Positions 1 through 62,200 of a DNA stretch of 63,939 nt are shown one piece after another (position 1 is the stretch's first letter; every line of letters begins with the position of its first letter). Below the pieces are notes generated by a model. That model searched no databases. It was not told the DNA's origin and saw only the letters and a list, made by a program, of their open reading frames with translations. The DNA comes from Candidatus Taenariivivens baikalensis (GTDB lineage: Bacteria > Omnitrophota > Omnitrophia > Omnitrophales > Aquincolibacteriaceae): the NCBI GenBank assembly GCA_009691445.1, contig SICL01000008.1:1-63939 (forward strand), written 5' to 3'. Made by a program: the position numbers and the translations under genes.

Positions 1-3000
1 ATGGATTTGCCACAGCCACACTTAACCTTACTTCGGAGCGGCGGGTGGATTTAGGATGACGATGACGAATGTTAGGGACAAGATGAATGAACCCTCCTCC
101 TTTTCGAACGACTGGGGTAACACCTAAGCTTGGTTTTGGTGAACGGTGAAAAAGCTGAAAGATAAAACCAGAAATGTTATACCAATAAAACCAGATCCCG
201 TAGAAAATCGGCACCAGGAAGGCCCACGCAAATACAAACATACCGACTTTCAATAAAGTAAAATGCGGCTGAAAAAGATTGTCTTCAAGCCTCTCAGCCA
301 GAATCGCTCCATTCTGCGGAACAACCTTCAGGGCTCTTAGATACTCGTGTGCAAAAGGATAGGATCCCTTCCAAAGATTTCTTACCCAGTGAAAAAAATT
401 ACCGGCGGGAGCATCCCAAAGCACATTTCCCAAGGCAGTTTCTGAAGGAAGAGAATACTGATCAATGATGTCGGCACACGCAGCAAGCAGCAGCCCCTTC
501 AATCCGGAGAATTCAGCGTCACTACGAATCACAATCACGAACCGGCCGCCTATTTCAAGAGGCCCTTCTCCATAAATCTTGACGATTTTCGTCCCATCGA
601 TTAACGCTTTCTGATCTTCTTCTGAAACAGAAAAACGAGCGCGATTCTCAAGAATGGTAAAGGCCCGGGGAACAAGCTGCCTCAGGGTTTCCAGGGACAA
701 TCGATACTGGAGAGGACTTTCCAATATATAAGGATCCAAATCCTGGGGAGGACTTTTTCCCCACGCGGCTTGCAAAGCATCTTCAAAACGTCTGAACCGA
801 TTCAACATTTCCGGATCATGAAAAATCCACTGGGCATAAAAATCACTTTCCGGAGATCTCTGATACCGGTTACTTGAAGACGGCTTTGCTTTCCAAACAT
901 ACGTATCCTGAAAAACAGAAGGGACCTTAAAAGGCGCTTGCTGAACTGCCGGAGTTACACTTTCCGGTTTCACCGCCGCGGGAAGATTGGTTTTCAGCAA
1001 TGATTGAGGAATGGGCAGAGTTGCACTTTTTTGAGGAACAGCTGCAGAGCTTGAAACCACTGCAATCGCAAGAATAAGCATTTTGATCAATGAAGGATTT
1101 CGCAGTTCGGATCTTGGAACAAGCAACTCCGCGTTAACCATCGTTGGAGTGGTTGAAGGTTTCAGGAGGTTTAAAATATTCTGTTCGGTGAGTTGATTGC
1201 GCGAATGAAGAAGCTTGAGGCCTGCAACGAACTGCTCAGCCTGGCGAAGCATAGTGCTAAGAGCATAGGGCATAGAGTTTTCAGACCCTTTGCTCCCCGC
1301 CTGCCGCTTCGCTTCGGCGGGCAGGTCTGCGCTTTGCTCTATGCTCAGCTCGTCAATGAATCTCGTGTATTCGTGGGCGTGAGTGAGTTCGTTCTTTGCG
1401 GCGAGGTCGCGGATGATTTGGTCTCTCCAGAGCTTCGCCAGTTGGAAGTTCGAAGTTGGAAGTTGGACGAGTTGATCTCCGTCTATCTCTTCTAACTTCG
1501 AACTTCTAACATCTAACTTCAGGAGTTGGTCGCGTGTTGCTCTCACAAACGCATCATAAAGATTCACTTTCCCGTCCTTCACCTCAAAATAATTCTTCCA
1601 CGACACATTGCCTTTCATGTGTTCACGGTAATTCGTTTGCTCCGGAATCGTCGTCATCTTCGGCGTAATGATTGCGTACGAGATTCCCTGGGCTTTGAGT
1701 TTTGCCGCGAGGCCCTGGGTGTGGAAACCGCCAGCTACAATAACCGTAGGCAGGAGGCCGTCGGCAGAAAGCAGTAAAGAAAATGCCTTTTCTCTGGATT
1801 CGGCATTACGGTAAAATGCTAAATGATCCTGGAAAGCAGAAAAATGAAAGCTGCTTACTGCCTTCTGCATACTGCTTACTGCTTTCACCTCTTCCCACTC
1901 TTCCCTCGTCAGCTCAAGCTTCACCAGTTTAGTGAGTAGCTGAAGCTGATGCGTTTGACGGTCAAGCTCGCGCTGTCCGGCATTTTCAAACAGCGATTCT
2001 TTGACGTCCTTGATATAAATTTCAAGTTCCCGGAATAATTCTGTCCCTTCAATCTGATTAAGCGTCTCTTCATGACTGACCCGTTTCAGGAGTTGATCCG
2101 ATACCTTCATGGAGAATCTCTGCTTCATATATAAAGCAAACGCTTGCGGGGTGATCTCGGAGGTGTTGAATTGCTGGAGTTTGGCGTGGAACTCCTGCAA
2201 GTCCATAGTCGACGGTCCATGGTCCACAGTTACAAGATCTTTGTTTTTTCTGCCGACTGTCGACTGCCGACTGTGGACTAAGCGCAAAGCGCGTTCTGCT
2301 TCCTTCGCAAGCTTTCTCACTTCAATAACAATTGCCGGACGGCTTTTCCCCTCTTCCTGCATTTCTTCCAAAAGAACCTGGAGCTGGGTTCCTTTTTCCG
2401 GCTCTCGAATTTTGGACAGAAGAAAAAGAACATCTTTCAGGTTCGCGTGATTTTCATGGAATGCTTCAAGGCCTTCATCTATGACAAGCAATGACTTGGG
2501 GTAGGCACTTTTCTTCTCTTCCCTCAGTGCTTCCTGCATACTGCTTACTGCCTTCTGAAGTTCTTCTTCCTTCCCCATCGCTTCTTGATAAAATCCCAAA
2601 CCAGCTTCGTAGAGAGGCCAGTCTTCCATACCTGAAAATTCAGCATGGTGCATGGGGCTCGGGGCATGGGAATTGACTCCTTGCTCCTTGCTCCCTGCTC
2701 CTTGCCTAAAAATCGCTGCCCCAGTCCCGCCCGTTAATTCCCCGCGATCGTAATATGCCTCAAACACTTCTCGCAATCTCTTTTGATTCGGAAAGCTCTG
2801 GAAGATTTGAGAATCCAGTTTCGAACTTGCCCCTTCCAGCTTCACACTCCGTACCCCGTACTCTGCGCTCAGGTACTCAATCAATTTCTCAATATTTCTC
2901 TGAGCCTCAGGGATTTCGTGTGCGTCTTGGATGAGGAAAATAGGAGCCCCTTCCTTACCATGGAAAATGTCCTGGATATGGCCCAAATTTTTCGGAACCT

Positions 3001-3151
3001 GAACCGTGGTAAGATTTGTAAGTATTTGGGTCCTGGAATTAAGGGACTCTGGAGATGCCTTTGCTGCGTAAAGAGACGGAAGTGTATTCTGGGAAAATGA
3101 AAGAGTGAATACAATCGCCCAGGCCGTTATTTTTTTGATAGGATTTTTCAT
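1..3151 (-). CDS. Large secreted/membrane protein with its 3' end beyond the window. It is absent from the supplied ORF track because it has no in-window stop. Tentative TIKI/ChaN/TraB-like domain.
   Basis: Manual minus-strand translation from the ATG at 3151-3149 stays open for 1050 codons to the window edge. It starts with a signal-like MKNPIKKITAWAIVFTLSFS. Two His motifs, IFLIQDAHEIPEAQRNIEKLIEYL and TVIVAGGFHTQGLAAKLKAQGISYAIITP, resemble the ChaN/TraB/TIKI superfamily. Hydrophobic segments LIKMLILAIAVVSS and VGMFVFAWAFLVPIFYGIWFYWY follow. The + strand here has only short shadow ORFs. Confidence 0.75.
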   Translation of the reverse strand, partial: MKNPIKKITAWAIVFTLSFSQNTLPSLYAAKASPESLNSRTQILTNLTTVQVPKNLGHIQDIFHGKEGAPIFLIQDAHEIPEAQRNIEKLIEYLSAEYGVRSVKLEGASSKLDSQIFQSFPNQKRLREVFEAYYDRGELTGGTGAAIFRQGAGSKEQGVNSHAPSPMHHAEFSGMEDWPLYEAGLGFYQEAMGKEEELQKAVSSMQEALREEKKSAYPKSLLVIDEGLEAFHENHANLKDVLFLLSKIREPEKGTQLQVLLEEMQEEGKSRPAIVIEVRKLAKEAERALRLVHSRQSTVGRKNKDLVTVDHGPSTMDLQEFHAKLQQFNTSEITPQAFALYMKQRFSMKVSDQLLKRVSHEETLNQIEGTELFRELEIYIKDVKESLFENAGQRELDRQTHQLQLLTKLVKLELTREEWEEVKAVSSMQKAVSSFHFSAFQDHLAFYRNAESREKAFSLLLSADGLLPTVIVAGGFHTQGLAAKLKAQGISYAIITPKMTTIPEQTNYREHMKGNVSWKNYFEVKDGKVNLYDAFVRATRDQLLKLDVRSSKLEEIDGDQLVQLPTSNFQLAKLWRDQIIRDLAAKNELTHAHEYTRFIDELSIEQSADLPAEAKRQAGSKGSENSMPYALSTMLRQAEQFVAGLKLLHSRNQLTEQNILNLLKPSTTPTMVNAELLVPRSELRNPSLIKMLILAIAVVSSSAAVPQKSATLPIPQSLLKTNLPAAVKPESVTPAVQQAPFKVPSVFQDTYVWKAKPSSSNRYQRSPESDFYAQWIFHDPEMLNRFRRFEDALQAAWGKSPPQDLDPYILESPLQYRLSLETLRQLVPRAFTILENRARFSVSEEDQKALIDGTKIVKIYGEGPLEIGGRFVIVIRSDAEFSGLKGLLLAACADIIDQYSLPSETALGNVLWDAPAGNFFHWVRNLWKGSYPFAHEYLRALKVVPQNGAILAERLEDNLFQPHFTLLKVGMFVFAWAFLVPIFYGIWFYWYNISGFIFQLFHRSPKPSLGVTPVVRKGGGFIHLVPNIRHRHPKSTRRSEVRLSVAVANP

Positions 3152-3294: not shown

Positions 3295-3359
3295 GGACAA
3301 GTGTCCGTGCCGGGCACATTAGAAAAAGATTTTACACTGCCTGGCACGGACACTTGTCC
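3295..3359. repeat. 21-bp inverted repeat (20/21 match) with a 23-nt loop, just upstream of the aminotransferase start
   Basis: ggacaagtgtccgtgccgggc (3295-3315) pairs with gcctggcacggacacttgtcc (3339-3359); the reverse complement differs at one base. Confidence 0.8.
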
Positions 3360-3391: not shown

Positions 3392-4573
3392 ATGAAATCA
3401 CCCGACTTTGCAAACCGAGCCAACTGGGAACAAACGGCTAATCTTTTTCACCGCAAGTGCACGGAACTTCGTCAAAAAGGTACGGAGCTTCTTGATCTGA
3501 CCGTTTCTAATCCCACTCAATGCGGTTTTGAATATTTGAATCCAGCTCTGCTGGCTCCGCTCCAAAATCAAAGCAATCTTGAATACACTCCAGATCCACG
3601 AGGACTTTTATCCTGCCGCGCGGCGATTGCTTCTTATTACAAGGTAAAAGGAATTCAGGTTGAACCCAGCCAGATTTTTGTCACGGCCAATACCAGCGAG
3701 GCCTACTCCTTTGTTTTTAAACTTCTTCTGGATCCCGGAGATTCTATGCTGGCTCCGGAGCCCAGTTATCCGCTCATCGACTACCTAGCATCCCTGAATG
3801 ACATTGAAATCGCCAGATACTCCCTAGATCCCGCTCAAAAATGGAAAATGAAACTGGAAGGCCTCCAAAAGGAAATTTCCAAAGCGGATAAAGCCCTTCT
3901 GCTTGTTCATCCCAATAATCCCACAGGAAATTATGTGTCGGATGAAGAAAGGCAGGCCGTCAACAAACTTGCCCGAGAAAATGGCTGGAGTTTGATCGTG
4001 GATGAGGTCTTTTTGGATTATTCTTTGAAAGATTCCACGCTAAAAAATGGAAGCTTCGCGGGAAATAAAGAAGCGCTGACCTTTACCTTAAGCGGGATTT
4101 CAAAAATCCTGGGACTTCCTCAAATGAAACTCTCCTGGATTGTCGTAAGCGGTCCCGAAAAAGAAAGCCTGGAAGCCTTGAGCCGGCTTGAAATCCTGGC
4201 GGACACGTATCTTTCTGCGAGCACGCCGTCCCAAAATGCACTACCCGCCTGGCTAGAACGAACGGATGAAATTCAAAAGGAAATTCTTACCCGTGTTCAG
4301 AATAATTACGAATGGTTTGAGAAAGAATATCAAAATAGCCGCTTCCCTGGGAATCCGCCGGAAATCGAGGGTGGCTGGTGCCTGCCCATCAAACTGCCTT
4401 CCACCCTTTCGGATGAAGCCTGGGCCCTGCATTTTCTCGAAGAGAGCCACGCAATTGTTCATCCAGGATATCTCTATGATTTTTCCGAAGGATCATGGAT
4501 CGTGGTGAGTCTGCTCGTACCGCCAAGAATTTTTCAGGAAGGCATCGGACGAATTTTTAAAACGATTCGTTAA
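3392..4573 (+). CDS. PLP-dependent aminotransferase, class I/II
   Basis: 393-aa ORF with HPNNPTGNY and SGISKILGLPQMKLSW (candidate PLP lysine); length and layout are typical of AlaC/AspC-like enzymes. Confidence 0.8.
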   Translation: MKSPDFANRANWEQTANLFHRKCTELRQKGTELLDLTVSNPTQCGFEYLNPALLAPLQNQSNLEYTPDPRGLLSCRAAIASYYKVKGIQVEPSQIFVTANTSEAYSFVFKLLLDPGDSMLAPEPSYPLIDYLASLNDIEIARYSLDPAQKWKMKLEGLQKEISKADKALLLVHPNNPTGNYVSDEERQAVNKLARENGWSLIVDEVFLDYSLKDSTLKNGSFAGNKEALTFTLSGISKILGLPQMKLSWIVVSGPEKESLEALSRLEILADTYLSASTPSQNALPAWLERTDEIQKEILTRVQNNYEWFEKEYQNSRFPGNPPEIEGGWCLPIKLPSTLSDEAWALHFLEESHAIVHPGYLYDFSEGSWIVVSLLVPPRIFQEGIGRIFKTIR

Positions 4574-19371: not shown

Positions 19372-19474
19372 GGGGACAAATTCTATGCGAGAGATCTGGA
19401 AGCGTCAATGGAAAGAAAAGCAATAAAATGGGGACAGGTTGCGGCAACCTGTCCCCATTTTATGGACGTTTTAC

Positions 19475-23779: not shown

Positions 23780-24868
23780 CTAAAACAGCTCCGCCTGCCG
23801 GGGCCGAAGGGAGGTGAAGTCCTGGATAGTTTCAAGGTTGGATAGACCGAGCCCCAGCAGACGAACGGCTTTTGTTCCAGCCTTGGTTTTATTCCTGAGC
23901 AGACGGCTTGCAATTTGGTGGACTGTTTCCGGATTGGCCGGAAAATCCTCAAGCGTGCAGGATCGCGTAATCAATTCAAAATCAAAATATTTCACTTTAA
24001 GGACAATCGTCTTTCCCATTCTTCCTTCTACCTTCAGCTGCTGATAGATATTCTTGGAAAATTCTCCCAGTTTATATTCCAGAAGCTGAAGGCTTTTCGT
24101 ATCCTTTTGGAAGGTCTCCTCGATGCTAAGCTGCTTGCTCTCTCCTTCCGGCTCTACCTCGCGATCATCACGTCCCTGCGATCGCTCATAAAGCGCGGCG
24201 CCTCCTTTTCCGAAATGCTTACGGAGAAATTCCGGGCCGGCCTTTTCGAGGTCCAAGCAGGTATAGATATTCTCTTCTTGAAGTTCCTTTTCCGTGACCG
24301 GACCCACGCCCGGAATCTTGCGGACGGAAAGATCCTTCAAAAATTCTTTTTCCTGTCCCGGAAAAACGACTGTGAGTCCGTTGGGCTTTTGAAAATCAGA
24401 AGCGATTTTGGCGAGAAAAAGATTCGGAGCAACTCCGGCTGAGGCGGTGATCTGCGTCACGGCCGCGATATTCTGCTTGATCAGTGTGGCGATCATCACT
24501 GGATCCTGAATGCCAAAACGGTGCTGGGTCACATCCAAATAAGCTTCATCCAGCGAAGCGGGTTCCACGAGCGTGGTGTGCTGTCTTAAAATCGCCATCA
24601 CCTGACGGGAAACCAGGCTGTACTTTTCAAATTGAGGACGGATAAAAATCCCCTGAGGACAAAGTTTTTTCGCCTGAGCTGCCGGCATCGCCGAATGCAC
24701 CCCGTATTTCCGGGCTTCATAAGAACAGGTGCTGACCACGCCGCGGCTCGCAGGATCCCCTCCGACAATCAAAGGCTTGCCCCGGTAAGGCGGATGGTCC
24801 CGCTGCTCAATCGCAGCAAAGAACGCGTCCATATCAATATGAATGATTTTTCGCGGCCAAGTCATCAT
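23780..24868 (-). CDS. dinB: DNA polymerase IV
   Basis: IIHIDMDAFFAAIEQRD and a Y-family layout. The track ORF starts at a TTG at 24901; the ATG at 24868 or 24865 is more plausible. Confidence 0.9.
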   Translation of the reverse strand: MMTWPRKIIHIDMDAFFAAIEQRDHPPYRGKPLIVGGDPASRGVVSTCSYEARKYGVHSAMPAAQAKKLCPQGIFIRPQFEKYSLVSRQVMAILRQHTTLVEPASLDEAYLDVTQHRFGIQDPVMIATLIKQNIAAVTQITASAGVAPNLFLAKIASDFQKPNGLTVVFPGQEKEFLKDLSVRKIPGVGPVTEKELQEENIYTCLDLEKAGPEFLRKHFGKGGAALYERSQGRDDREVEPEGESKQLSIEETFQKDTKSLQLLEYKLGEFSKNIYQQLKVEGRMGKTIVLKVKYFDFELITRSCTLEDFPANPETVHQIASRLLRNKTKAGTKAVRLLGLGLSNLETIQDFTSLRPRQAELF

Positions 24869-26933: not shown

Positions 26934-27006
26934 GGCTCAGCTTTCGGCTCTCAGCCTTCAGCAATCAGTTTTCATTTTTTCTGAAAGCTGACAGCTGAAA
27001 GCTCCT
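26934..27006. repeat. Heptamer-word hairpin between rseP and proS
   Basis: Left arm words gcTCAGC ttTCGGC tcTCAGC ctTCAGC. Right arm words GCTGAAA GCTGACA GCTGAAA. The arms are about 20/24 complementary. Confidence 0.7.
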
Positions 27007-37128: not shown

Positions 37129-37214
37129 GATTTCGGAATGGGAATTGCGGATTTCGGATTTTGGTATCCCTTCGGGATGATCTAATCCGCATTCCGCAAT
37201 CTGAAATCCGCAAT
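37129..37214. repeat. AATCCGC-word hairpin, copy A, immediately 3' of tRNA-Leu
   Basis: gatttcggaatgggaattgcggatttcggatt...aatccgc attccgc aatctga aatccgc aat. The 65-nt core at 37150-37214 is about 95 percent identical to 37307-37373. Confidence 0.8.
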
Positions 37215-37220
37215 GGACAC

Positions 37221-37302
37221 TGCGGCTAGAGGGACTTGAACCCCCATTCCTTTCGGAACCAGATCCTAAGTCTGGCGCGTCTGCCAGTTTCGCCATAGCC
37301 GC
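37221..37302 (-). tRNA. tRNA-Leu(TAG)
   Basis: Minus strand reads gcggctatggcgaaactggcagacgcg-ccaga-ctTAGga-tctgg, then a long variable arm, then gggggttcaagtccctctagccgca. Confidence 0.88.
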
Positions 37303-37306
37303 GTTC

Positions 37307-37373
37307 GATTTCGGATTTTTGGTATCCCTTCGGGATAATCCTAATCCGCATTCCGCAATCTGAAATCCGCAAT
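37307..37373. repeat. AATCCGC-word hairpin, copy B, immediately 5' of tRNA-Leu
   Basis: gatttcggatttttggtatcccttcgggataatcctaatccgcattccgcaatctgaaatccgcaat. Confidence 0.8.
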
Positions 37374-37964: not shown

Positions 37965-38936
37965 TTAGTTTTCCCTACCTGATGCTTTCTTTAGGAAATC
38001 AAGAAATTTAGGATGAACGGCTGATCCCATTTCTTCTACTTTATGCACATCTGCCCAAGCCTTATCATATTCTTTTGCTGCAAAATGGGCAACGCCGCGG
38101 TTCTCATAGGCCTCTGTGTAATTAGGGTTTATCTCAATGGCTTTGGTGTGGTCAGCAATGGCTTGTGCGAACTTGCCTTGCTTAGTATAAGCGAGACCAC
38201 GGCTGTAATAGAAATCTGCGTGGCCAGGATTTATTTCAATAGCCTTGTTATGATCAGCGATTGTTTGAGGAAGGTTGCCTTGTTTAAGAAAGGCAACGCC
38301 GCGATTATAGTAGGCATCTACGTAGTTAGGATTTATTTCGATAGCCTTATTATAGTCAACGATAGCTTGCATAAAGTTGCCTTGCGTAGCGTAATCAAAC
38401 CCACGGTTGTTATAGGCCACTGCATTGATAGGATTTATTTCAATGGCCTTGCCATAATCAGAAATTGCTTGAGAAAGGTTGCCCTGTTTATGAAAGATGA
38501 CGCCGCGGCTGTAATATGCATCACTATATTTAGGATTTAGTTCAATAGCCTTATTGTAGTCAACGATGGCTTGCGTGAGGCTACTTTGCTTAGAATAGGT
38601 AACGCCACGGTTGTAATAGACTTTTGCATCATTGGGTTTTATTGCGATGGCTTTAGCAAAGTCAGAGAGAGCTTGAGCGAAGTTACCCTGTTCGTCATGG
38701 ACAATCCCACGATTGTAATAAGCCTCTTCCAGGTTAGGCTTCATTTCAAGCGCCTTGGTAAAATCAGAAACGGCTTGAGCGAAGTTATGTTGTTTGGCTT
38801 CAACAACTCCGTGATTGAGATATTCTTCTGCGGTTTCAGCATAAACAAAAGAAACGCTTAAAAATAATACCCCTATTAAGGCACCCATTATTATTTTGGA
38901 ACTCTGAAATTTCATTTTTATCCTCTGAGGCTCCAT
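37965..38936 (-). CDS. Secreted tetratricopeptide-repeat protein (about 8 tandem TPRs)
   Basis: 34-aa periodicity with the pattern A..DY.KAIEINP....AY.NRG......GN..QA repeated throughout; N-terminal signal/TM. Confidence 0.88.
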   Translation of the reverse strand: MEPQRIKMKFQSSKIIMGALIGVLFLSVSFVYAETAEEYLNHGVVEAKQHNFAQAVSDFTKALEMKPNLEEAYYNRGIVHDEQGNFAQALSDFAKAIAIKPNDAKVYYNRGVTYSKQSSLTQAIVDYNKAIELNPKYSDAYYSRGVIFHKQGNLSQAISDYGKAIEINPINAVAYNNRGFDYATQGNFMQAIVDYNKAIEINPNYVDAYYNRGVAFLKQGNLPQTIADHNKAIEINPGHADFYYSRGLAYTKQGKFAQAIADHTKAIEINPNYTEAYENRGVAHFAAKEYDKAWADVHKVEEMGSAVHPKFLDFLKKASGREN

Positions 38937-46769: not shown

Positions 46770-47534
46770 CTTTGTGCCTGAAAAATAACCATAAGGAAGT
46801 GTAGCTCGATCACAGCGGTCTTACAAGGGTACGCACCAAAATTTTAAAATAAAGAATACACGGCTCGCAAAAATTACGCAGGAATGTTTTAAACCAGTTG
46901 CACGTGTTTGAACTTGATGGGAGTTGCTAGAATCCAATCGACCCAGGGTTCCTGAATTCGGGCTCAGACAAATTTTCTATATAGCAATCAATAGCAACTC
47001 TATTCTTTTTCGGACAAAATTTATACGTTTTCAATGAATCTAAGAATAAGAAGAGAGAGCTAAATCAGAACTTCCATTTTTCACGGCGCATTTGAAGGCT
47101 GATTAAATGTGGAACTTGCTTCTTAACAGGCGAGAACTTTTTCGAGGGTTTGCTCGATCTGAGATTCTCTATTTCGAAGATCAGCAGGAAATCTCTTATT
47201 CACTTCATTCATAACTTTCCGCATTTTTTTGACAAGAATATGAACGATTTCGATCTTATTTTTTCGGAAATTTAAAATTCGAAAACCAGTTGGCATATTG
47301 GTGAACATCCCGCCTTCCAAAAGCAAGACATCCTCCAATTCCCTGACGTAGGAAGGCTCGCCGGTCTTGTTCGAATGACCGGAAAAAAAGTGTGCCAGCC
47401 TTGTGCCCTTTTAGATACCAAAATCGACCATTCTGGACCAAACGGTCTTCATACAAAAATTTTCGCAACTCATTACTCACAAAAGAATTTGTAACACTGG
47501 TAAGAATTTAGGAGATTTTGTTCGGAGGGGGGCG

Positions 47535-47572
47535 CAGTCCCTTGCTCTACCGACTGAGCTACCTGCCCGGAA
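47535..47572 (-). pseudogene. 5' fragment of tRNA-Phe; a 38-nt perfect copy of 42861-42898 ending in the anticodon loop
   Basis: cagtcccttgctctaccgactgagctacctgcccggaa is identical at both positions. Confidence 0.85.
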
Positions 47573-47577
47573 AGATT

Positions 47578-47655
47578 ACGGATTGGGGATTTCGGATTGC
47601 GGAATGAGCGCGGTAAAATCCGCAATCAGCAACCCGCATTCTGAAGTCGGAATCA
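47578..47655. repeat. AATCCGC-word hairpin, third locus, adjoining the tRNA-Phe fragment
   Basis: Left arm acggatt ggggatt tcggatt gcggaat; right arm aatccgc aatcagc aacccgc attctga agtcgga. Confidence 0.7.
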
Positions 47656-47689
47656 TACTGGACAGGCTGAGGAGTGTCAAGAAGGGTCT

Positions 47690-50937: not shown

Positions 50938-51480
50938 TTATTCCATATTTTTTCTACGGTAATCATCCATCAATTTGCGGATATCACTATCCGCGGAGCG
51001 CTGAACCTGCATGCAGATAAAAATAAGAACAGAAAACTGCCAGCAGTCCTCTGGGCCCACAATTAAACCGGTGGAGATATTTTCTTCCTGATGAAGTTCC
51101 CGGCTATAGCGGTCAATCGCGCCCTTTAAACGTCCTTCAAAGAGATCCAGCGATTCCGTCTTGTTCTGATATTTAAACGAAGGAAAACGCACGCCGCGCA
51201 CCAGGAGAAATGTCGTAAGCAGATCCTGATTAAGTTTGGATTCTCTTTCAAAATCAAATCCTTCGAGCTGCGGCAGATCCGAGGGAAGATGGATCGATGG
51301 CTTATCTACCGCCACGGCCCCCTTGCGGACAACGGTGTCTCCCAAATTGACGGAGGACTCCGCCAAAAAAATATAGGGCAACTTCGTGGTTTCAAACGCA
51401 TGAAGCGGCTGCAAACGGAATCGAACAATTTCTGTTTGTTTAAGTGCCTTGGACCAAGCGGAGTGAATATCCATCGTCAT
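50938..51480 (-). CDS. Hypothetical protein
   Basis: 180-aa ORF of ordinary composition; I recognise no motif. Confidence 0.5.
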   Translation of the reverse strand: MTMDIHSAWSKALKQTEIVRFRLQPLHAFETTKLPYIFLAESSVNLGDTVVRKGAVAVDKPSIHLPSDLPQLEGFDFERESKLNQDLLTTFLLVRGVRFPSFKYQNKTESLDLFEGRLKGAIDRYSRELHQEENISTGLIVGPEDCWQFSVLIFICMQVQRSADSDIRKLMDDYRRKNME

Positions 51481-51562
51481 TAAATCCGAAATCCGAATAT
51501 CGAAATCCGAAAGATTCTCAAATAATTAGAGTTTTGAATTTTGAAATTAGTAAAACTGTCCA

Positions 51563-52432
51563 CTAGCATCTTCTAACTTGCTTAATGATAACCGGCAAAT
51601 AATCCAAGAGGTCACTTGCCATCAGACTCGCTTCGCCTGTTTTCCGGATCGCTTGATCGGCCACAAGGCCGTGGAGGAAAACCCCGAAACGGGCGCTGTC
51701 CCAAAGCGAAAATCCCTGCGCAGCAAGGGCAGCAATCATTCCCGTCAGGACATCACCAAATCCACCCTTTGCCATCCCCGGATTTCCTGTCATGTTAACA
51801 TAAAGTTTATTTTTTTTCGCGACAATCGTGTGCCAACCCTTAAGAACAATCACCCAGGGCCCTTGCTGAGCAATTTCAAACGCACATTTTTTTCGATCCG
51901 ATTCCCCCGCGGAGAGTTTGCCTCCGAAAAGCCTCTTAAATTCTCCGGGATGCGGAGTTAAAACAGCGCGCCCTGACAAATCCTGGAGTTCGCGTTTATG
52001 TCCAGCAAAGGCATTCAGTCCATCCGCGTCCAGCACGACAGGGATCGGGGTTTCCCGGATGAGCTTCCGGACAAGTTTCTGAGTTTCGGGATGCTGGGAA
52101 AGTCCGGGGCCAAGCGCAAGAATCGTTTGAGCGGAAATCATTTTTTTAAGCGGCTTCAGACATTTTAAGGAAAATGTTCCGGCTGAGGTGCTCGCAAAGG
52201 GATGAACCATCACGTCCGCGCGCACGCGGCGGGCGACGATAGAATAAACTGCTTCCGGAACCGCAAGGCTGACAAGTCCCGCGCCGGTGCGGAGAGCTGC
52301 AAGGCTCGCCAACTCCGCCGCTCCGGTCATCCCCTGGGAACCGGCCACAATCAACACGCGGCCAAAATCACCTTTGTGAGATTTTTTTTTTCGCGGCGGC
52401 CATTTTTTGAAGATTTCTTGAATAATATCCAT
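51563..52432 (-). CDS. nnrD: ADP-dependent NAD(P)H-hydrate dehydratase (YjeF C-terminal domain type)
   Basis: Contains KGDFGRVLIVAGSQGMTGAAELA and GNPGMAKGGFGDVLTG. The ATG at 52432 is preferred; the longer track N-terminus translates the repeat arm. Confidence 0.85.
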   Translation of the reverse strand: MDIIQEIFKKWPPRKKKSHKGDFGRVLIVAGSQGMTGAAELASLAALRTGAGLVSLAVPEAVYSIVARRVRADVMVHPFASTSAGTFSLKCLKPLKKMISAQTILALGPGLSQHPETQKLVRKLIRETPIPVVLDADGLNAFAGHKRELQDLSGRAVLTPHPGEFKRLFGGKLSAGESDRKKCAFEIAQQGPWVIVLKGWHTIVAKKNKLYVNMTGNPGMAKGGFGDVLTGMIAALAAQGFSLWDSARFGVFLHGLVADQAIRKTGEASLMASDLLDYLPVIIKQVRRC

Positions 52433-52438
52433 CAACAA

Positions 52439-52572
52439 AATAACCAAGAAACAAGAGACAATAACCAAATAAATTCAAAAATAATAAATTTCAATCTTTT
52501 CAAATCGCTCATTTCTTGGATCTTAGGGGCTTGATTATTCGTTTGTATCTTGCATCTTGTTTCTTGGTTATT
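52439..52572. repeat. Heptamer-word inverted repeat with an 18/18 perfect stem and a 98-nt spacer
   Basis: aataaccaagaaacaaga (52439-52456) pairs with tcttgtttcttggttatt (52555-52572). Words are taaccaa gaaacaa gagacaa taaccaa. The right arm contains the pdxJ stop codon. Confidence 0.8.
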
Positions 52573-53287
52573 TACTCTTTAGATTGATTAAACCCTTCAT
52601 TTCTTCCACGCTTTTGCGCAGTCCCCAAAAAACAGCGTGCGAAACAATGGAATGCCCGATATTGAGCTCTTCGATTTCGGAAATTCCGCAAATTGGCTGG
52701 ACATTGTCATAATCCAGACCGTGGCCGGCGTGCACCTTCATCCCCAAACGCACCGCAAGTGCCGAGCCTTGACGGATTTTATCCAGCTCCAGACGCCGGT
52801 GTTTTCCTTTGGCAAGACTGTACGCGCCCGTATGAATTTCAATGGCATCTGCACCCACTAAAGAAGCTTTCAAAATCTGTTCGGGAGAGGGATCTATAAA
52901 TAAACTGACTTCAATGTGCAGGGCCTTAAAAAGTGGGATGGTTTTCTTTAAGGCCTTTTCCTTGGCAATCACATTCAAACCGCCTTCGGTGGTCACTTCC
53001 AGGCGGCGCTCGGGAACAATGCAGACTTTTTCGGGCTTTAACGCCAAGGCAATACGGATAATTTCCGGGACCAGTGCAAGCTCCAGATTGATGGGAATGC
53101 GGCAACTGCGTTTTAAGGCCGGGAGATCCGTGTCCTGAATGTGGCGGCGGTCTTCGCGTAAATGAACGGTGATACTGTCCGCCCCGCCCGCTTCTGCTTC
53201 CTTAGCCGCAAGGATCACGTCCGGCTGAGTTCCACGCCGCGCTTGGCGCAGAGTCGCCACATGATCAATATTAACGCCGAGTTTCAT
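52568..53287 (-). CDS. pdxJ: Pyridoxine 5'-phosphate synthase
   Basis: Contains MKLGVNIDHVATLRQARRG, HLREDRRHI and HAGHGL. Confidence 0.93.
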   Translation of the reverse strand: MKLGVNIDHVATLRQARRGTQPDVILAAKEAEAGGADSITVHLREDRRHIQDTDLPALKRSCRIPINLELALVPEIIRIALALKPEKVCIVPERRLEVTTEGGLNVIAKEKALKKTIPLFKALHIEVSLFIDPSPEQILKASLVGADAIEIHTGAYSLAKGKHRRLELDKIRQGSALAVRLGMKVHAGHGLDYDNVQPICGISEIEELNIGHSIVSHAVFWGLRKSVEEMKGLINLKSK

Positions 53288-53306
53288 GATTCAATCTCTA
53301 GAAATC

Positions 53307-53371
53307 AGTTGCCAGTAACCAGTAACCTGACATTCTGAGCTCTGGTTACTAGCAACGGGTTACTGGTTACT
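53307..53371. repeat. AGTAACC-word hairpin between cdaR and pdxJ
   Basis: agtaaccagtaacc (53314-53327) pairs perfectly with ggttactggttact (53358-53371). Extra words agttgcc and agcaacg are present. A T7 run follows on the + strand. Confidence 0.8.
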
Positions 53372-53375
53372 TTTT

Positions 53376-54305
53376 TTATTTCTTCTTCACCGACACATGC
53401 ACCACGGGGATTTTATCCTTCATCGTCACGTCTTCAGGAAGAGCCACGATCACCGGCACCTCATGATCGCCTTCGCTAAGGCTCGCGAGATCGACATAGG
53501 CAAGAATATTTTGCGGCGTTAATTTTTCAAGCTGGCGTTTAGAACCGCTTACCACAAATGATACCTTGAGGGGCTTGATTTCAATCACGTCATTTTTTTC
53601 CGGCGAACGCAAGACCTTAAAAGCAACATCCAAAAATTTCTTTTCTTCAAATTCTTCATTAATCGGAATATGCGCATCGATCAAACTTTCGCTGACCGCT
53701 TTTAAATTAGACGGCAGAGCTATTGAAAGCGTCCGGCGGAAAGAACGGATACGCCCCACCAGATCAATCGGCTCCGTCGAAACCGCATCTAGTTTTTCTA
53801 GCTCCCCCTTGGGTCCCTGAACCAAAATAGCATTCGGATCAAGCTGGATCTGACTTGTTGCCACCTTATAGCCAAAAGCTGGTTCTCCCACAAACTTGGG
53901 TTTGACCGGAAGCTTAACCACAATCAATTCATCCAAAGTCATGCGGATAATTTCCGGCTGAATACTGGTCACCTGGATCTGAGGCTTAGGCAGCTTGATC
54001 TCACGAGCTTCAATCTGGAAAGTGTACTCGCCCGCTTTGGCCATTTCTTTTCCGATTTCATGCACCGCAATAATTTCCACGGACGCAAGATCCGAAAGAA
54101 GATTACGTTGAGAAACCAGCGTAACCTGCAGGGTTTCGGAGGAAAGCTTAAGCACGCTCACATTCGGATTCTGGACATGAATTTTAAGCGGTACCGTTCG
54201 CGTAACCTCCACGCTTTCCTCGCCCACGGCGTAGTTCCAAAGTCCAATCGCCAACACAAGGGAAATCAGCTTCAATCCCCAATCTTTCGTCACCCAGCGG
54301 ATCAT
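53376..54305 (-). CDS. cdaR: YbbR-domain protein (CdaR-like regulator of diadenylate cyclase)
   Basis: N-terminal TM, repeated YbbR-like beta modules, and a 4-nt overlap with cdaA. Confidence 0.7.
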   Translation of the reverse strand: MIRWVTKDWGLKLISLVLAIGLWNYAVGEESVEVTRTVPLKIHVQNPNVSVLKLSSETLQVTLVSQRNLLSDLASVEIIAVHEIGKEMAKAGEYTFQIEAREIKLPKPQIQVTSIQPEIIRMTLDELIVVKLPVKPKFVGEPAFGYKVATSQIQLDPNAILVQGPKGELEKLDAVSTEPIDLVGRIRSFRRTLSIALPSNLKAVSESLIDAHIPINEEFEEKKFLDVAFKVLRSPEKNDVIEIKPLKVSFVVSGSKRQLEKLTPQNILAYVDLASLSEGDHEVPVIVALPEDVTMKDKIPVVHVSVKKK

Positions 54306-56163: not shown

Positions 56164-56200
56164 AAAAGAAGGATAGCTAACTTTATAAAGTTTGTCAATT

Positions 56201-56226
56201 ATTAGTAACTTTATAAAGTTACTAAT
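56201..56226. promoter_or_regulatory. Perfect 26-nt palindrome; its 14-nt core is repeated at 56179-56192. Candidate operator of the HTH-Fic gene.
   Basis: attagtaactttataaagttactaat equals its own reverse complement. aactttataaagtt also occurs at 56179-56192, and a half-site ataaagtt near 56241. Confidence 0.55.
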
Positions 56227-56255
56227 AACTCAAAAATACTATAAAGTTAGAAGAA

Positions 56256-59200
56256 TTACGCAGCGGAGGAAGTCTGAAGGGTGGAGTTGAAGAGGGTTTG
56301 CAGAGTTTCGGCCAAGCCTTGAAGCGCGGGAGTATTCAGATACATTAAATTACCCATTTGCTGAAGCACGGGGCCGTATTGTTCTGTCAGTTTTTCTGCT
56401 TTCATTTCGCGCGAATACGCGGCCGTAATCCAGTGCCCTGCTCTCATAATCCTGGAACTTGGATAAGAGGGGCGAACCACCAGAGCTGCAGAAAGATTAA
56501 GACTCTGAAGAATCGTCTCGCGGCCGGTCACCACAAAATAACGGGAAAGATCAGGTTCATTGCCGGATGCTTTGTTCCATAATTTCATTTGTCCAAGCAC
56601 CTGGGCGGAAAGTTTTTGGATTTCGTGATTGATGTTCGCGGTTCTCAGAATCACGCGAATCGTAAAACGATTCTTGAGATTGATTTGATTTTGCGTGGCC
56701 CACTGGGCTTCCTGTCTCACGATTTCCACCGCACGCGCTTGAAGTTCTTTGAGTTTCGCAGAATCCGCCAGTACAACAATTGTTTTCCCTTGGTGCGCGC
56801 TCGCCCAAATCGCACGATTGGCTTGAATCTCTTCCGGTGAAGGCAGGGCATCTTCATAAATATCCGCCACCCAGCCGGGAGTATCCGAAACCAGATCCTT
56901 CTTCTGAAGACTCTGGATCCAGTCCGGCGTCTCGGATTTGTTCAAGGCCTGAACCTGATCCAGTAATGCTCGCTGGTTTTCGTATCCCGTAATCCGGACA
57001 TCAATAAACCTTCCCGCCACCTCCACCACCTGGATCACAGGAAACGCATTCTCCGCGTTTTTAAGCGAATCCAAATCAAAACCAAGCTTTGCCGTGAGCC
57101 TTACGTGGTTTGGATGAGCGGATGACCCGCGTCCTTGTGTGCCGGTTAACTCATCCCGCCTCATCTCGGAACGGGCGGCTTCAAAAGCAATCCGTTTTTC
57201 CGAAACTTCCGTGGCAAAATAATCACGATACTCGGTGTGTGTTTTTAAAGCGATGGCCAAGATGTCTCTTACCTGCGTCCATCGAGAAAGAATCACGCTC
57301 TTGCTCTCTAAAATTTCATGGAGGCTTGTTGCGTAAGCAAATAGGGTATCGAGATCGTCAACGTTCGTGATTCCTCCAGGATATTGGGTAAGATAGATCA
57401 CGGAACTCAAAAGCGTTTCTGGTTTACTCGATCGGTCTGCAGTTAAAAGATAAAGCGTTTCATCCATCGAAGAACCCTCAATAATTCCTTTCATGTAGCG
57501 CTTCAAATAATCCGCATTCTGCCAATTTCGTGTGCGCTCCTCCAAGTCTTGCTGCGCTTCCGTGCCTCTCACCTCGGAGCGAGTCATGGATTCAATTCTT
57601 CTGAGACTTTCAGCCAGCACGGTCGACATCGGCGCCTTGGAATCTTGATGAAGATCAAACTGCCATTGGCCAAGGCCTTGAATACTTTTGCTTACTTCCC
57701 GTTTTAAAGATTCGTACTGGGATAGCGCCAGAGGAATCGATTGATAAAATTCAGCAAAAATAAATTGAAGTCCTTTTTTCGCCTCTTCAATCGAGCCTGT
57801 ATTCACCGACACAGATCGCAAGGCTGGAAGCACCGTCTGAAGAATGCGGCCCGTTTCGTTCAACCGCAGTTGATGACCCAGATAGTTGTAACGACGTTTA
57901 ATCCCGCCCCGCTTCAAAGCAATTTGCTTGAGGCGTTCATCCAAAAATGATTTCACTTCATTCATCTGCTGACGAGCGCCCTCAAGCTGTCCGCTCTTGA
58001 TTTGCGCCAGTGCAAGATCGAGCGACGCACGCGCTTTTGTTTTCTGAGACGTCTTTCCCCACCGCATCCCGCCTTTAGAATTTTGAATCTGCTCCAGGTG
58101 ATAAACAATCTGGTCGCGGCGATAATCTGAAAGCGTGCTCTCTTTGGAACCCAGCATCTCTTCAATAAAATCGAGCGCATTGCGGTGAAATGCAACCGTA
58201 CCGTAATCTTCTTCCTGACTCACTAAAATATGAACTTGCTGCCTGACGGCCGTAGGTAAATCAGCCAGCTTCATTTCCTTCTGTCTCAGGACGTAACCGC
58301 GAATGCTGGCGTCTTTGACCCAAAAGTTTTGCTGGATCGTGACTTGTTTTTTCTCGCCAATTTGCGTCGGGGCCTTGACCTTGATCCGGAAAAGCGAATA
58401 GTCGTAAATTTTCTCAGTGACACCATCCAAACTGGTTACGGGAATTTTCTTCACGCCCGCTTCTTCAATTCTCCGCCGCCAGCTCCAGGCATATTCTTCC
58501 CCGAGCCGCTGATAGAGCTTCCCCGCTGAAACAAGAACAGCCAGAAGCTGATTCCGGGTGAAATCGCTTTTCTGAACTTTGTCCCCATTTTCAATCGCCG
58601 CCAGCATCTTCGAGGCTTTTAGCAGCTGGGCTTTTAAACGCGCCTTGATGAAAAATACCGTGCCTCGGTTTAAGAATTCCAACCGATCCGTGTTTTTCTC
58701 CAAATACGCCTTCTCGAGCTTGGGAATCAGCGCGTGATATTCTTTTTCATAATCAGCGGATTTTTTTTGCAACTCTTCTGCGGAAAGACCCTCTGAACTC
58801 TTGAAGGTCCTATTTTGCTTGGCTTGAATAGCCTCTGAGAGATTGGGATCGGACTTGATGAGTTGGGCAAACCGTTTGATCTGGGGAAGATATTCCTGCG
58901 TCACACTTTGATCAATCTTCGCTGCATCATCGTCGCTTAATTCACCGCTCGCCTTCTGTTGTTTTCGGTAAGTAAACGCGGTATTGATATCGCGATTCCA
59001 CCTGTGAAGCGTTGTCGAGCGTGCCCGTGCTGTTTCCATCCGTTTGAAATAAGCGCGGATCTGACTCTGAATTACCGCAGCCGCTGCACCCGGCGCTGTG
59101 CGAAGTTCCGAGCGAGTGGGTTTACTCTGAGAAACACGGCTGGACAAATTCCTGACTTCCGCGCGAGGCCTGGGATCTGCCCCCCGCAATTCGGGACGGA

Positions 59201-62200
59201 ACCGAACAATTTTGAGCGAATCTATGGGAGTCCTAAGCACATCACGAATCGATGTTCCGCTCTCTATTTTTCTCACCTCGGAACGGCTCCGCCGCCCAAG
59301 GGCTGCCAGCTGAGCTGCTCGAACCACTCTTAGCGTTTCCGCTAATTCCCTATCCCTCCCGTGAACCTGGTTCATTTCTGAAATTTTATCCCTTTCCTCT
59401 TTAATATTCCAAAGGAACTTCTGAATGATCATCGAGGTTTCTCCCGCTGATCGGGAACGCTTGTTATAACGTTTTAAAGATGCCTGAGCTTGTCTAAAAT
59501 AAGTTTCTGCCTTCCGATAGAAATCGAGTTTGTCCGTGTCACTCGGTGACTTTCTGGCCGCATATAAATAACGGGAGGCGATCGACTTTTGAACAAACCC
59601 TTCCCGGATTTGATATTTGTCATAAAACGGATTTGACTGGGGTAAATGCTGCAGGGCCTGTTCGTAGAAGGATAATGCTTTTTGATAAGAGTCAATCAGC
59701 CCATTTCTAATTAAATCAAGCAACGCTCCCGGAGCAGCGCTGCGAGAAACAGCATTAGCTTCTTTGAAATGGATTCTCCCCATCTCCCCCTCAATCATGC
59801 CCTGGGCTGCCCTTCCGGTTTCGGATTTCGAAAAAATATTTTGAGAGCGCATTAAATCCAAGGCCTGAGTTAAAAATTCTGGCTCTACGCTGGGAAAATT
59901 TGCTCTTTCTTCGAGTGAAACATGAGCCTCGAGTTTCGCGGCATGATCTTCTACTTGAGTAAGCTGGTCCGCCGGAATTTTGGATTTTGCAAGCAGATCC
60001 AGAACCTGAGTCACCGTCCCGGAAACAGTTCCTCCGATTTCTGAGACTTGAAAAGCTCTCAGCAAATCAATGGCCGCCTGAATATCCGCCCCCTTTCTCA
60101 CCTCGGAACGAACATGACGGGAAATAATGATCGTTTCCAGAGCCTTCGAGTGCGATCCTGCAGAACGAAGCAGCTTTTTTCCCTGGGGAAGCTGTATCAC
60201 AACATCTTTGCCATTTCCCCAGAGAAACACATTTTTCGCCCCGCGCTCAATGAGATCAGCAATCAAATCACGAAGTACAGCACCACGGTAATGTGTTTTT
60301 CCCGGAACGATGCCAGCAAGGATTTTTCCCTTGGTCGTGAAACCAAAAAAAGTGTGTGGATGAATGCCGGGAAGCAGTTTAATAACCATCTTTTTTTCTG
60401 CTTCACGAATGAAGTATTGGCCGGGCTTGAGGACATTACCGGATTTCGCATCAGCCAGTTTCTGATATTCCCAATTTTCGAAAACCCTGTCGCGCTCTTC
60501 GGGAGTGATCCCAAATGTATCCAGAGGACTTAAATCCAGTTCAATCGCTTCTCCGCGCAAAGATTTTTGAACCAGCTCATGATTACGGTAAATCTCGCCC
60601 TTTCGGTCACTCACTCCCAAATGAATCTGTTTGGTTCCCCGCTCAAACATGGGCAAACGAAAAAGATGGCGAAGATCATCAAATTGCTTCGCGACTTTAT
60701 TCAAATTGTCCCGTCCATTTTTAACAATGTGCTGGCCGTAAATGGCATATCTAATTTTTTTAGCAATATTTTTTCCCGATTCGTCAAAAACTCCTATTTT
60801 GCCTTTCTTGTTTTTGAACCAAAGTTTTTGGATGCTCATCGTGCCGTCGGTCCAAATCACCAGCATATCCCGCGGCTTTAAAGCATCTCTTTGATAATGG
60901 AATAGTTTTCCATCCACAACACCCGCAAACCAATCATTGAATCCAAGATTGCCGTTGGGAAGCACGGCAAGAATTTCCTCATCCGGATGAAGCCGCTTAT
61001 GCCGTTTTAAAAATTCTCTACGGCTGATTCTCACATTGGCAATCTGGGGCGATGCGAAATTGATAGACTCATGATCCCAGTAAATCTTATTATTCACGCG
61101 ATCAAAATGAATCCGTCCGACACCGTCACGAAAAGCTTCTTCGACAACCTGCAAACTAACGCGGACCTGATCCGATTTAAAAATCCTCACCACCGGTTTC
61201 TCGATTTTGAATTCTAATTCCGTCTCACGCTTCATCCTCATCTCCGAACGAATGGTCTCCGTGTTTACCGCCCAAGAATCTTTATCTGTCATCTTCGCCA
61301 TTTCTTTTAAATCAAACGGAACTTTCTGAACCCGGATTTCTGAGCGGGGTTTGCGTTGAAAAGGTCCGGAATCGCCACTGTCGCCATCTCTCGTCGAGCG
61401 GTTCATTTCCTTCCATAATTCATAAACCTCGGGGTCGTCGGTCGTAGAATTTTGAATGGTGGTTCGATTGATAAGCGCTTTCGGATCTTGACTGACACCC
61501 TCCTGGGCATAAATACTACTAGTGATCTTGGCAAGTGGACCCAAGTGCATCCAGGAAGCTGTAACAAGGGGCGCCATGCTTGCCGCACCCAGCGCAATGA
61601 TCGGACCTTTTGAAGCAAAGCCTTTATGATTGTTATAAGCTGGACCAAGAATCACAATGAGATCAGGATTCCTGTTCACAAAACGCTTTGCGAGCATCCC
61701 TGTCAAATTTTGATTGGCTAAAAGATAGCGAAAATGTTTCGGCGCTTTTGTCACTCCATGCTCCGTCAATGCCTGTTGAATGACAAACCACGCATTCGGT
61801 AAAATCGTTTCCAGCTTGCGAAGAGAAATGGGCACCAAAACTGATTCGGGTTTTGCGCTTTCAGAAGGCCTCTTCAAAACTTCATCTTGAAGTCCATTGA
61901 GTGTGTCTAATAATGCTCTTTGGATCTCTGCGCTGGCATCTTGAATCTTGCTGCCCGTATAAGTCGTTTTCGTGCTCAATCTTGCCTGATCTTCCGCCAC
62001 AATCTTATTTTGCGCATAAAGGAACCAACCCGGATTTGCTCCCTTCTCCAGATAAATTTCCGCATTCGATATAATACCGCCGCTTATCTGCTGGCTGCCG
62101 CTCAGCATAATCACGGGCCCATAGGAAATAACGCTGTCTTGATTTCGATAATTAGGTCCCAAAATAACAACCGTCGTAGGATCGGTGTTGATAATGCTGC

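Follow-up and report, generated by a model that had tools for sequence, protein, structure and literature searches.

We describe tandem arrays of 7-nt words, many of them folded back as imperfect hairpins, in a 63,939-nt stretch of contig SICL01000008.1 from Candidatus Taenariivivens baikalensis (phylum Omnitrophota); this whole stretch is hereafter called the window, and the gene that carries the translated arrays the host gene. Such fold-back heptamer repeats are a class of small repeats common in some Omnitrophota genomes. Their occurrence in coding sequence is almost unique to the N-terminal domain of the single secreted protein family to which the host gene belongs, and otherwise they lie in intergenic spacers. 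We consider the chances about even that the tracts are fold-back heptanucleotide microsatellites that arise by slippage together with inverted or ectopic template switching, and that are retained only where they are tolerated.

The translated tracts of the window all lie in one gene, whose product starts with a signal-peptide-like segment:

1-3151, minus strand: host gene, start codon ATG at 3151-3149, 1050 stop-free codons, partial, running off the left end of the window

An earlier note on this DNA, made from the letters alone, had placed several tracts in an open reading frame (ORF) at 1..3151 and had read them as frame-preserving. The ORF is real, and the read-through is borne out by 1050 codons without a stop; its strand, however, is the minus strand, so that the words quoted in the note are the antisense of the coding strand.

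Tracts were detected with Tandem Repeats Finder (TRF) at a low score threshold and with a lag-7 sliding scan against dinucleotide-preserving shuffles. TRF returned period-7 arrays at 1440-1467, 1489-1520, 1851-1884, 2201-2226, 2250-2279, 2528-2551 and 2677-2705 and a period-14 array at 1248-1277, which hold 3.3-4.9 units. The lag-7 scan found nine runs in the 63.9-kb window, five of them inside 1-3151, against 0.25 +/- 0.43 expected; among the periods 2-15, only 7 and its harmonic 14 are enriched. Arrays and runs thus confirm where the earlier note had located the tracts, and the excess over shuffled sequence that it had proposed as a check is present. Its expectation that repeat finders would miss them fails, since an ordinary tandem-repeat finder detects them at a low score threshold.

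The tracts of the host gene fall on seven of eight hotspots (s1, s2, s4, s5, s6, s7 and s8), which were named s1-s8 in a MAFFT alignment of 85 domains of the family. All lie within the minus-strand gene:

2650-2706, s1: hairpin, arms CATGGGG CTCGGGG CATGGGA against CTCCTTG x4, encoding RQGAGSKEQGVNSHAPSP
2528-2560, s2: single tract of a TGCTTAC-type word, about 3.4 units (TRF 2528-2551)
2201-2278, s4: hairpin, arms GTCCATA GTCGACG GTCCATG GTCCACA against CTGCCGA CTGTCGA CTGCCGA CTGTGGA, 20-nt loop, encoding LVHSRQSTVGRKNKDLVTVDHGPSTMDL
1850-1888, s5: arm of a CTGCTTA-type word, 4.9 units (TRF 1851-1884), encoding KAVSSMQKAVSS
1746-1786, s6: arm GTCGGCA GAAAGCA GTAAAGA, the inverted partner of the s5 arm
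1438-1523, s7: hairpin, arms of GGAAGTT / CGAAGTT units against AACTTCN units, encoding KLDVRSSKLEEIDGDQLVQLPTSNFQL
1249-1349, s8: composite hairpin, outer arms of GCATAGN heptamers (1249-1276) against 1329-1349
1297-1325, nested in the s8 hairpin: GC-rich core hairpin of 29 nt, CCGCCTGCCGC-TTCGCTTC-GGCGGGCAGG

All five paired regions fold better than their shuffles on both strands (z -2.6 to -6.4), which settles the folding check suggested in the note in favour of its hairpins. At s1 the fold z is -3.05 for the mRNA strand and -4.19 for the antisense strand, and the two strands give -4.86 and -5.24 at s4 and -2.83 and -3.22 at s8. At s7 the arms 1441-1462 and 1489-1510 are 91% complementary over 22 nt (z -4.06 and -6.42), a pair that includes the 15/16 stem 1445-1460 / 1491-1506 reported before. 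The s5 and s6 arms form an inverted pair (1767-1786 / 1867-1886, 80% complementary; z -2.64 and -3.16) with some 70 nt of conserved coding sequence (HLAFYRNAE) between them; they are not a compact insertion. The element at 2531-2560, listed in the note among the hairpins, turned out to be a single tract in a helix of constant length. The 18-mer CTGCATACTGCTTACTGC does occur exactly twice, at 1865-1882 and 2534-2551, where none is expected, in the same frame and encoding KAVSSMQ. The GCAGTAA word is shared by three tracts, direct and in the same frame at s2 and s5 and inverted at s6, and several words recur in other genomes; the statement that the word sequence differs at every site is thus contradicted. 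The peptide of s8 (1249-1349) has no relative with even three shared 5-residue words among 5.8 billion proteins.

The host family is multi-copy in Omnitrophota, with up to eight copies in some metagenome-assembled genomes (MAGs). Its conserved N-terminal domain of about 600 aa was placed at ~1151-2959 by tblastn; the homologues, 33-42% identical, are "hypothetical proteins" that all come from Candidatus Omnitrophota-type MAGs. A Pfam search with the host protein gave no match, and neither a sequence-profile search nor Foldseek (best E = 0.43) found a PDB match for the fold of the domain; an erythromycin-esterase/ChaN-like entry (3b55) reached only E = 2.1. AlphaFold2 models the domain as a helical bundle that has a small beta core, with a mean predicted local distance difference test score (pLDDT) of 75.9. 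The sole segments modelled with pLDDT <50, residues 88-103, 236-249, 365-369, 483-499 and 543-563, are the products of s1, s4, s5, s7 and s8, respectively, so that five of the hotspots are predicted to be disordered loops. The s2 tract lies in a confidently predicted helix (residues 131-152, pLDDT >90), and the s2 site measures 60 nt in all 85 family members. The window gene exceeds the median length of the family by 45, 48, 30 and 54 nt at s1, s4, s7 and s8, and does not exceed it at s2, s5 and s6. The earlier suggestion that the tracts are insertions therefore stands at four sites and falls at the other three.

For comparison, one genome per species was scanned, and the best 80 of 204 relatives were kept as loci; the resulting set (84 loci, referred to by L numbers, 722 kb, nearly all Omnitrophota) covers family genes with their flanks rather than whole genomes. 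It contains 95 period-7 tracts against 4 in shuffles, other periods giving 4-32. Of the tracts scored for pairing, 60/103 have, no more than 120 nt away, an inverted partner that scores beyond the 95th percentile of the null, and 43/103 are single. In the scan of the loci, 76/100 tracts are in the coding sequence of the family domain. Tract density per 10 kb is 5.25 in this domain, 0.38 in the rest of the family genes and 0.46 outside them, so that the domain is 11-14 times denser than other regions; the tracts outside family genes lie nearly all beyond long ORFs. Within the domain they cluster across the family at the eight alignment hotspots, s1-s8, each occupied in 4-19% of the family members, and the genes with any tract (29/85) are clumped. 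Hotspot DNA without a detectable tract still has a lag-7/lag-14 excess (0.272, against ~0.25 at neighbouring non-codon lags and 0.243 in the conserved segments), which is consistent with decayed tracts.

Two trivial sources of this pattern can be set aside: chance or composition is ruled out by the shuffles, both in the window and in the loci, and an assembly artefact by the recurrence of the same architecture in dozens of independent assemblies. Coiled-coil heptads, a repeat at the protein level, were also considered. Gly, Pro and Ser abound in the encoded peptides, which are predicted to be disordered, and a protein-level repeat was rejected because selection on protein does not create a 7-nt DNA periodicity that is read in all three frames.

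Comparison of related genes shows how the tracts change. Among close relatives with proteins 76-81% identical, s7 is empty in L048, carries a 66-nt non-periodic insert in L028, and holds a near-perfect AAGTTNG hairpin in L023; between L048 and the other two, about 18 nt are replaced without an obvious target-site duplication, at this protein identity of only 76-81%. In L023, the s5 insertion copies the adjoining flank in inverted orientation (GAGAAGGTGCCAGGG ... CCCTGGCACCTTCTC), which is a hallmark of template switching. L032 and L074 both measure 156 nt at s5, and one unit position differs in all four units of one arm (GGCTTTG vs GTCTTTG) without a compensating change in the partner arm, which is concerted evolution within an arm. 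A difference of 21 nt between related genes at s6 of L058 consists of duplications of 14 and 7 nt. Tracts also replace resident sequence without a change in length, at s2 and, between L032 and L074, at s3 and s5.

The reading frame is intact in all 86 domain copies of the family, none of which is frameshifted. Of the consensus words 71% are stop-free, no more than among random 7-mers (70%), and a perfect array would carry an in-frame stop in 19/76 coding tracts. Deviations from the consensus amount to 0.35 per base inside the would-be stop codons and 0.06 elsewhere, about one patch per stop. This fits a DNA process that is blind to the frame, followed by selection. In 22/30 coding hairpins the mRNA strand folds worse than its complement (p = 0.004), which speaks against selection on the structure of the mRNA; a possible cause lies in substitutions forced by coding.

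A shared vocabulary connects sites and genomes, with 70 canonical words among 100 tracts. One word family (GACTAAC) occupies s3, s5, s7 and s8 of L074; an AAGGTGG / CCTTCGA hairpin is shared by four paralogues from two genomes, at s5, s7 and s8, and a GGGATAA / CTACCCC hairpin at s1 and s7. The s4 word family of the window gene is also found, at other sites, in L012, L022, L060, L074 and P0003. Arms of the same type carry unrelated loops, and only two elements are conserved throughout, the 29-nt GC core of s8 and a 67-nt pair that flanks a tRNA gene in the window. The core recurs, 28/29 identical, at L022 5107-5135 and L060 5062-5090, both at s5, and inverted with 3 mismatches at L060 4665-4693, between s3 and s4; the total is a small sample of four copies (26-29/29 identical, two genomes, all within the host family). 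Each is nested in CATAG-type heptamer arms, of GCATAG type in the window and of CCATAG type in L022 and L060. The viral contigs searched did not contain the core pattern.

The claim that the tracts are specific to a lineage is not sustained, as many distant family members carry heptamer tracts at the same hotspots; nor is the s7 segment (1438-1523) private, since L023 has nearly the same arms and peptide. Rather than random private insertions whose words are unrelated, the tracts are recurrent, site-restricted events that draw on a common pool of words.

All other period-7 tracts of the window lie in non-coding DNA and have the same build (fold z -3.3 to -5.6), and the other coding sequence of the window, about 57 kb, contains none:

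26939-27003: intergenic hairpin, GCTTTCG-type against CTGAAAG units (fold z -5.64 and -4.90), filling a 74-nt spacer between two minus-strand ORFs
37129-37215: intergenic hairpin of GGATTTC / AATCCGC words, directly 3' of tRNA-Leu (fold z about -4)
37305-37373: a further copy of this AATCCGC hairpin, 5' of tRNA-Leu
47574-47650: third AATCCGC-type hairpin, between a promoter-like site and a tRNA-like fragment
51482-51512: intergenic AAATCCG tract, 23 nt of it identical to a coding tract at s6 of L060
52438-52573: long-range hairpin of CAAGAAA-type against TTGTATC / TTGCATC words (fold z -5.2)
53300-53376: intergenic hairpin of CCAGTAA against GGTTACT, 26 nt of it 92% identical to L013 1819-1844

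The loop and right arm of the AATCCGC hairpin form the 67-nt repeat mentioned above (37150-37214 and 37307-37373, 95.5% identical), which flanks tRNA-Leu (37221-37302) on both sides within a tRNA cluster. The arms of the long-range hairpin (37 nt, 81% complementary) enclose a whole spacer together with the stop of the gene upstream of it and the start of the one downstream. This hairpin belongs to a run of minus-strand genes (50938-54305) in which each intercistronic spacer holds a heptamer hairpin (51482-51512, 52438-52573 and 53300-53376). An Rfam scan of the window returned tRNAs only and no family that matches the hairpins, and a consensus scan for canonical intrinsic terminators did not call them.

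Several other features of the window and of the loci were recorded. A tRNA-like 5' fragment (~47521-47572, minus strand) is called by neither ARAGORN nor Rfam; a TTGACA-17-TATGAT site at 47680..47652, the best sigma-70-like promoter match in the scanned 36-55 kb region, and the hairpin at 47574-47650 both precede it. In the divergent spacer between the host gene (start 3151) and an aminotransferase gene (3392-4573, plus strand) sits a non-heptameric hairpin (3295-3359) with 22-nt arms, GGACAAGTGTCCGTGCCGGGCA and TGCCTGGCACGGACACTTGTCC, that are 95% complementary; possible roles are those of an operator or of a regulatory element acting in both directions. An aminotransferase gene is divergent likewise at L004 360-1550 in MAG CAZOOM01, and because of this shared neighbour P0008 is probably the positional orthologue of the host gene; the word of the s7 hairpin of P0008 (GGGATAA / CTACCCC) differs from that of the window gene. 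Other repeats of the window are a perfect palindrome at 19423-19463 (20-nt arms, ATAAAATGGGGACAGGTTGC and its complement), tandem repeats of 102 and 204 nt at 38176-38692 within ORF 37965-38936 (a 34-aa, TPR-like periodicity), and an AT-rich palindrome at 56177-56250 (37-nt arms, 84% complementary) just 3' of a giant ORF. This ORF (56256-63935, 2559 aa) has no Pfam match and no period-7 tract, and falls outside the host family by tblastn. Among the loci, L001 has an intergenic hairpin (23903-24015) with period-8 arms, AAAAAGTT x5 against CTTTTAAA x3, so that the architecture of fold-back tandem arms does not strictly require a 7-nt unit. In L084 and L046 (MAG DAOPYQ01), a module of at least ~200 nt (e.g. 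L084 7490-7750) is repeated in at least 6 copies in the C-terminal parts of family genes. The module is itself composed of several heptamer tracts, with an array of GCAACGC, a GGAAGGGAAGTTGTGGCTTGAAAC segment that is conserved, and an ACGGATG hairpin whose loop is conserved.

In the account we favour, a process at the DNA level that is blind to the reading frame would make and remodel the tracts. We infer that slipped-strand replication would amplify and homogenise the 7-nt unit, and that intrastrand or ectopic template switching would copy a tract nearby, inverted or direct, giving complementary arms and one word at several sites. Selection would purge the versions that shift the frame or bear a stop, leaving lengths divisible by three and single-base patches at would-be stops. 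The survivors would persist only in tolerant places, the predicted disordered inter-helix loops of the family and non-coding spacers, and the translated tracts would be low-complexity loop peptides without a required function of their own. Several observations weigh against this account as it stands. The purine-rich arm comes 5' in 33 hairpins and 3' in 4 (p = 1e-6), and since an inverted repeat keeps this polarity on both strands, the direction of transcription or replication cannot be its cause. Abundance is specific to the genome, with 8 paralogues and 0 tracts in one MAG and 3 paralogues and 18 tracts in another; rich in tracts are CAYWRU01, JAYSWD01, JAYTHE01, CAZOOM01, CAYJSI01, CAISGE01 and the genome of the window, and free of them JBAYGD01, CAYSSX01 and JAHFHD01. 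Tolerance alone does not account for tracts that are denser at the hotspots (~20 per 10 kb) than in intergenic DNA, or for their low density in the highly variable C-terminal parts of the family genes. The window and L023 share 90-96% identity in their s7 arms, around unrelated loops and beside an upstream flank of ~62% identity, and the GC core is 97% identical between genomes with host proteins of ~35-40% identity, at different hotspots and in both orientations; together these identities point to transfer, mobility or constraint over independent local slippage. A metagenome scan for close relatives of the window gene returned only paralogues of 35-36% identity; the 90% clusters of homologues were singletons or uninformative. 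Because polarity, genome specificity, shared words, the GC core and density suggest something more specific, we hold slippage with template switching at even chances. More specifically, some Omnitrophota might encode a trans-acting activity that makes or spreads fold-back heptamers of fixed polarity, directed to or selected at the eight loops, which we think unlikely; candidates may be a transposase specific for hairpins, or a polymerase by which a 7-nt template is copied reiteratively at breaks. If true, this would be a previously unknown, frame-preserving route to diversity in the surface loops of proteins.

Some of the same observations would be expected if the tracts were small non-autonomous mobile elements of the repetitive extragenic palindromic (REP), small dispersed repeat (SDR), MITE (miniature inverted-repeat transposable element) or foldback type, copied into new sites by an enzyme of the host or of the element that would recognise hairpins or heptamer tracts, and with arms that vary secondarily by slippage. 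This is a possibility that we take seriously and still regard as rather improbable. It gains from the GC core, found at different hotspots, in different orientations and genomes and always in CATAG-type arms, from identical words in coding and intergenic contexts of different genomes, and from the near-identity of the window and L023 arms despite their diverged flanks; the empty, filled and replaced states at s7 among close relatives would fit as well, and the genome-specific abundance resembles bursts of activity. Neither target-site duplications nor conserved termini were seen, however, and otherwise identical arm types enclose unrelated loops. Arm pairs flank conserved coding sequence, as at s5/s6 of the window and in L005, instead of forming one contiguous insert, and tracts swap with resident sequence at unchanged length (s2; s3 and s5 between L032 and L074). 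The six ACGGATG hairpins of L084 and L046, whose loops are conserved, were considered as proof of mobility and dropped: their flanks are conserved too, and they are therefore duplicated protein modules and not transposed copies, so that the multi-copy hairpins count against mobility. Segment-wise mosaicism between paralogues, with the hotspots as recombination junctions, was suggestive and was likewise dropped, the segments being too short. Were the tracts instead a selected diversification or contingency device, gain and loss of units and turnover of words would alter surface loops at eight positions. Their extreme enrichment at sites of one multi-copy family with signal-peptide-like N-termini, a unit length not divisible by three, a trait also of classical contingency loci, the fast turnover of hotspot sequence between close relatives, and the predicted exposure and disorder of the encoded loops all argue for such a role. 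With no frameshifted copy among 86 domains, and with tracts that are short (3-5 units) and imperfect, we nevertheless judge it improbable; only 29/85 genes bear tracts and genomes with 8 paralogues have none, so that the device would be dispensable for the family.

The significant folding, positions that are conserved across the family when the sequence is not, and the hairpins in all intercistronic spacers of the 50938-54305 run could also be read as functional RNA structures in the mRNA or an antisense transcript, acting in pausing for secretion or folding, in RNase processing or in stability. Such a role seems very unlikely, given the weaker folding of the mRNA strand in 22/30 hairpins, an occupancy of 4-19% per site, the uncompensated concerted change in the arm of L032 and the absence of any matching Rfam family. 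Least probable of all, to the point of being scarcely credible, are scars of double-strand-break healing, in which a 7-nt template would be copied reiteratively onto both 3' ends before these are joined, giving W(n)-loop-rcW(m) with the purine-rich strand 5'. This proposal has the merit of covering inverted tandem arms, the strand-symmetric polarity (33 vs 4) and genome- and gene-specific vocabularies together, and the pairs of Xanthomonas are likewise 'convergent' (PMC4692102). A candidate enzyme was not identified in the sampled flanks of family genes, the arm pairs that flank conserved coding sequence misfit a single break, and 43/103 tracts are partnerless. We know of no reiterative 7-nt break-healing activity in bacteria.

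The family itself is a natural experiment in which eight positions have been hit repeatedly across a phylum, with empty, fresh and decayed states side by side, and in which the reading frame is a built-in record of what selection has removed. Any mechanism must account for the polarity, the genome specificity, the shared vocabulary and the nested GC-rich cores. The tracts indicate that repeat dynamics blind to the frame can yield new disordered protein loops, and they call for caution in annotating and aligning the very large proteins of Omnitrophota.

Reports of heptanucleotide repeats in bacteria go back to 1990, and in many genomes no long simple repeat is commoner. In the account of Mrazek (2007) relayed in PMC4679880, they are the most abundant long simple-sequence repeats (LSSRs) in many prokaryotes, and slippage was proposed as their origin. 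Beggiatoaceae and cyanobacteria have TAACTGA arrays, which within ORFs occur only at protein ends or in hypothetical ORFs (PMC4679880). The tracts described here show the head-to-tail 7-nt iteration above chance that characterises heptanucleotide LSSRs, and, as far as the latter are presented in that source, they resemble the LSSRs of Mrazek, the short tandemly repeated repetitive sequences (STRRs) of cyanobacteria and the TAACTGA repeats of Beggiatoaceae in the over-representation of a unit of 7 and the sporadic distribution across lineages (PMC4679880). Those repeats are mostly intergenic, and they are direct arrays of one or a few words; unlike such direct arrays, the tracts described here are hairpin-paired, in frame and restricted to hotspots of a conserved domain. 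Reportedly, mobile SDRs of 21-27 nt (SDR4-6) in Nostoc punctiforme, described by Elhai et al. in 2008, are embedded in tandem heptameric repeats. The 29-nt GC core within CATAG arms resembles that arrangement, in another phylum and with other sequences.

The closest likeness in build may be sought in Xanthomonas, where 70-75 convergent pairs of GGGAATC heptamers, 89-93% of them intergenic, have been described (Rehm et al., 2015; PMC4692102); they repeat essentially one G-rich word and were interpreted as G-quadruplex formers (PMC4692102). Both there and here, tandem 7-nt units (mostly about 4 copies in Xanthomonas) frequently form two convergent inverted arrays, purine-rich first and capable of a stem-loop. 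In Xanthomonas, the repeats vary in length and sequence between related species, and whether a repeat is single or an inverted pair usually stays the same. Our tracts share the nearby arrays on opposite strands that make a convergent pair, and do not consist of a single G-rich intergenic word; dozens of words are used, many without G-runs, in frame at fixed hotspots of one family.

Other hairpins are translated. Rickettsia palindromic elements (RPEs) form families of about 150 bp with conserved sequence and are found in frame in many unrelated genes (PMC10969869). The tracts are likewise palindromic, in frame, translated and at positions compatible with the fold; unlike RPEs, they measure 57-101 nt, are defined by architecture and not by sequence, have microsatellite arms and are concentrated in one family, and their copies are not similar over the whole length as those of MITEs or RPEs are. 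Mitochondrial genes of Nematomorpha contain long perfect coding palindromes, both arms of which encode conserved regions of the protein (PMC6649704). There, as here, hairpin-forming inverted repeats lie in functional coding sequence as a compromise between DNA structure and protein; the Nematomorpha palindromes have no tandem sub-structure, and the arms in the window gene encode non-conserved loops.

Further from the tracts stand two kinds of hairpin element that lack period-7 arms in coding loops. REP sequences, with the related bacterial interspersed mosaic elements (BIMEs) and REP doublets forming hairpins (REPINs), are short extragenic, intercistronic hairpins whose sequence is conserved within a genome and which are associated with the REP-associated tyrosine transposase (RAYT). 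The Foldback transposons of eukaryotes are kilobase-scale elements with inverted arms of short tandem repeats. The words of our tracts vary between sites and most copies in the host gene are coding, unlike in REPs and REPINs. Phase-variable contingency loci are no better match, since our tracts hold 3-5 imperfect units and 0/86 domains are frameshifted. Our literature search found no paper on fold-back heptamer repeats in Omnitrophota, and none of the systems compared here joins many words, microsatellite arms, pairing, in-frame translation and fixed hotspots across a phylum.

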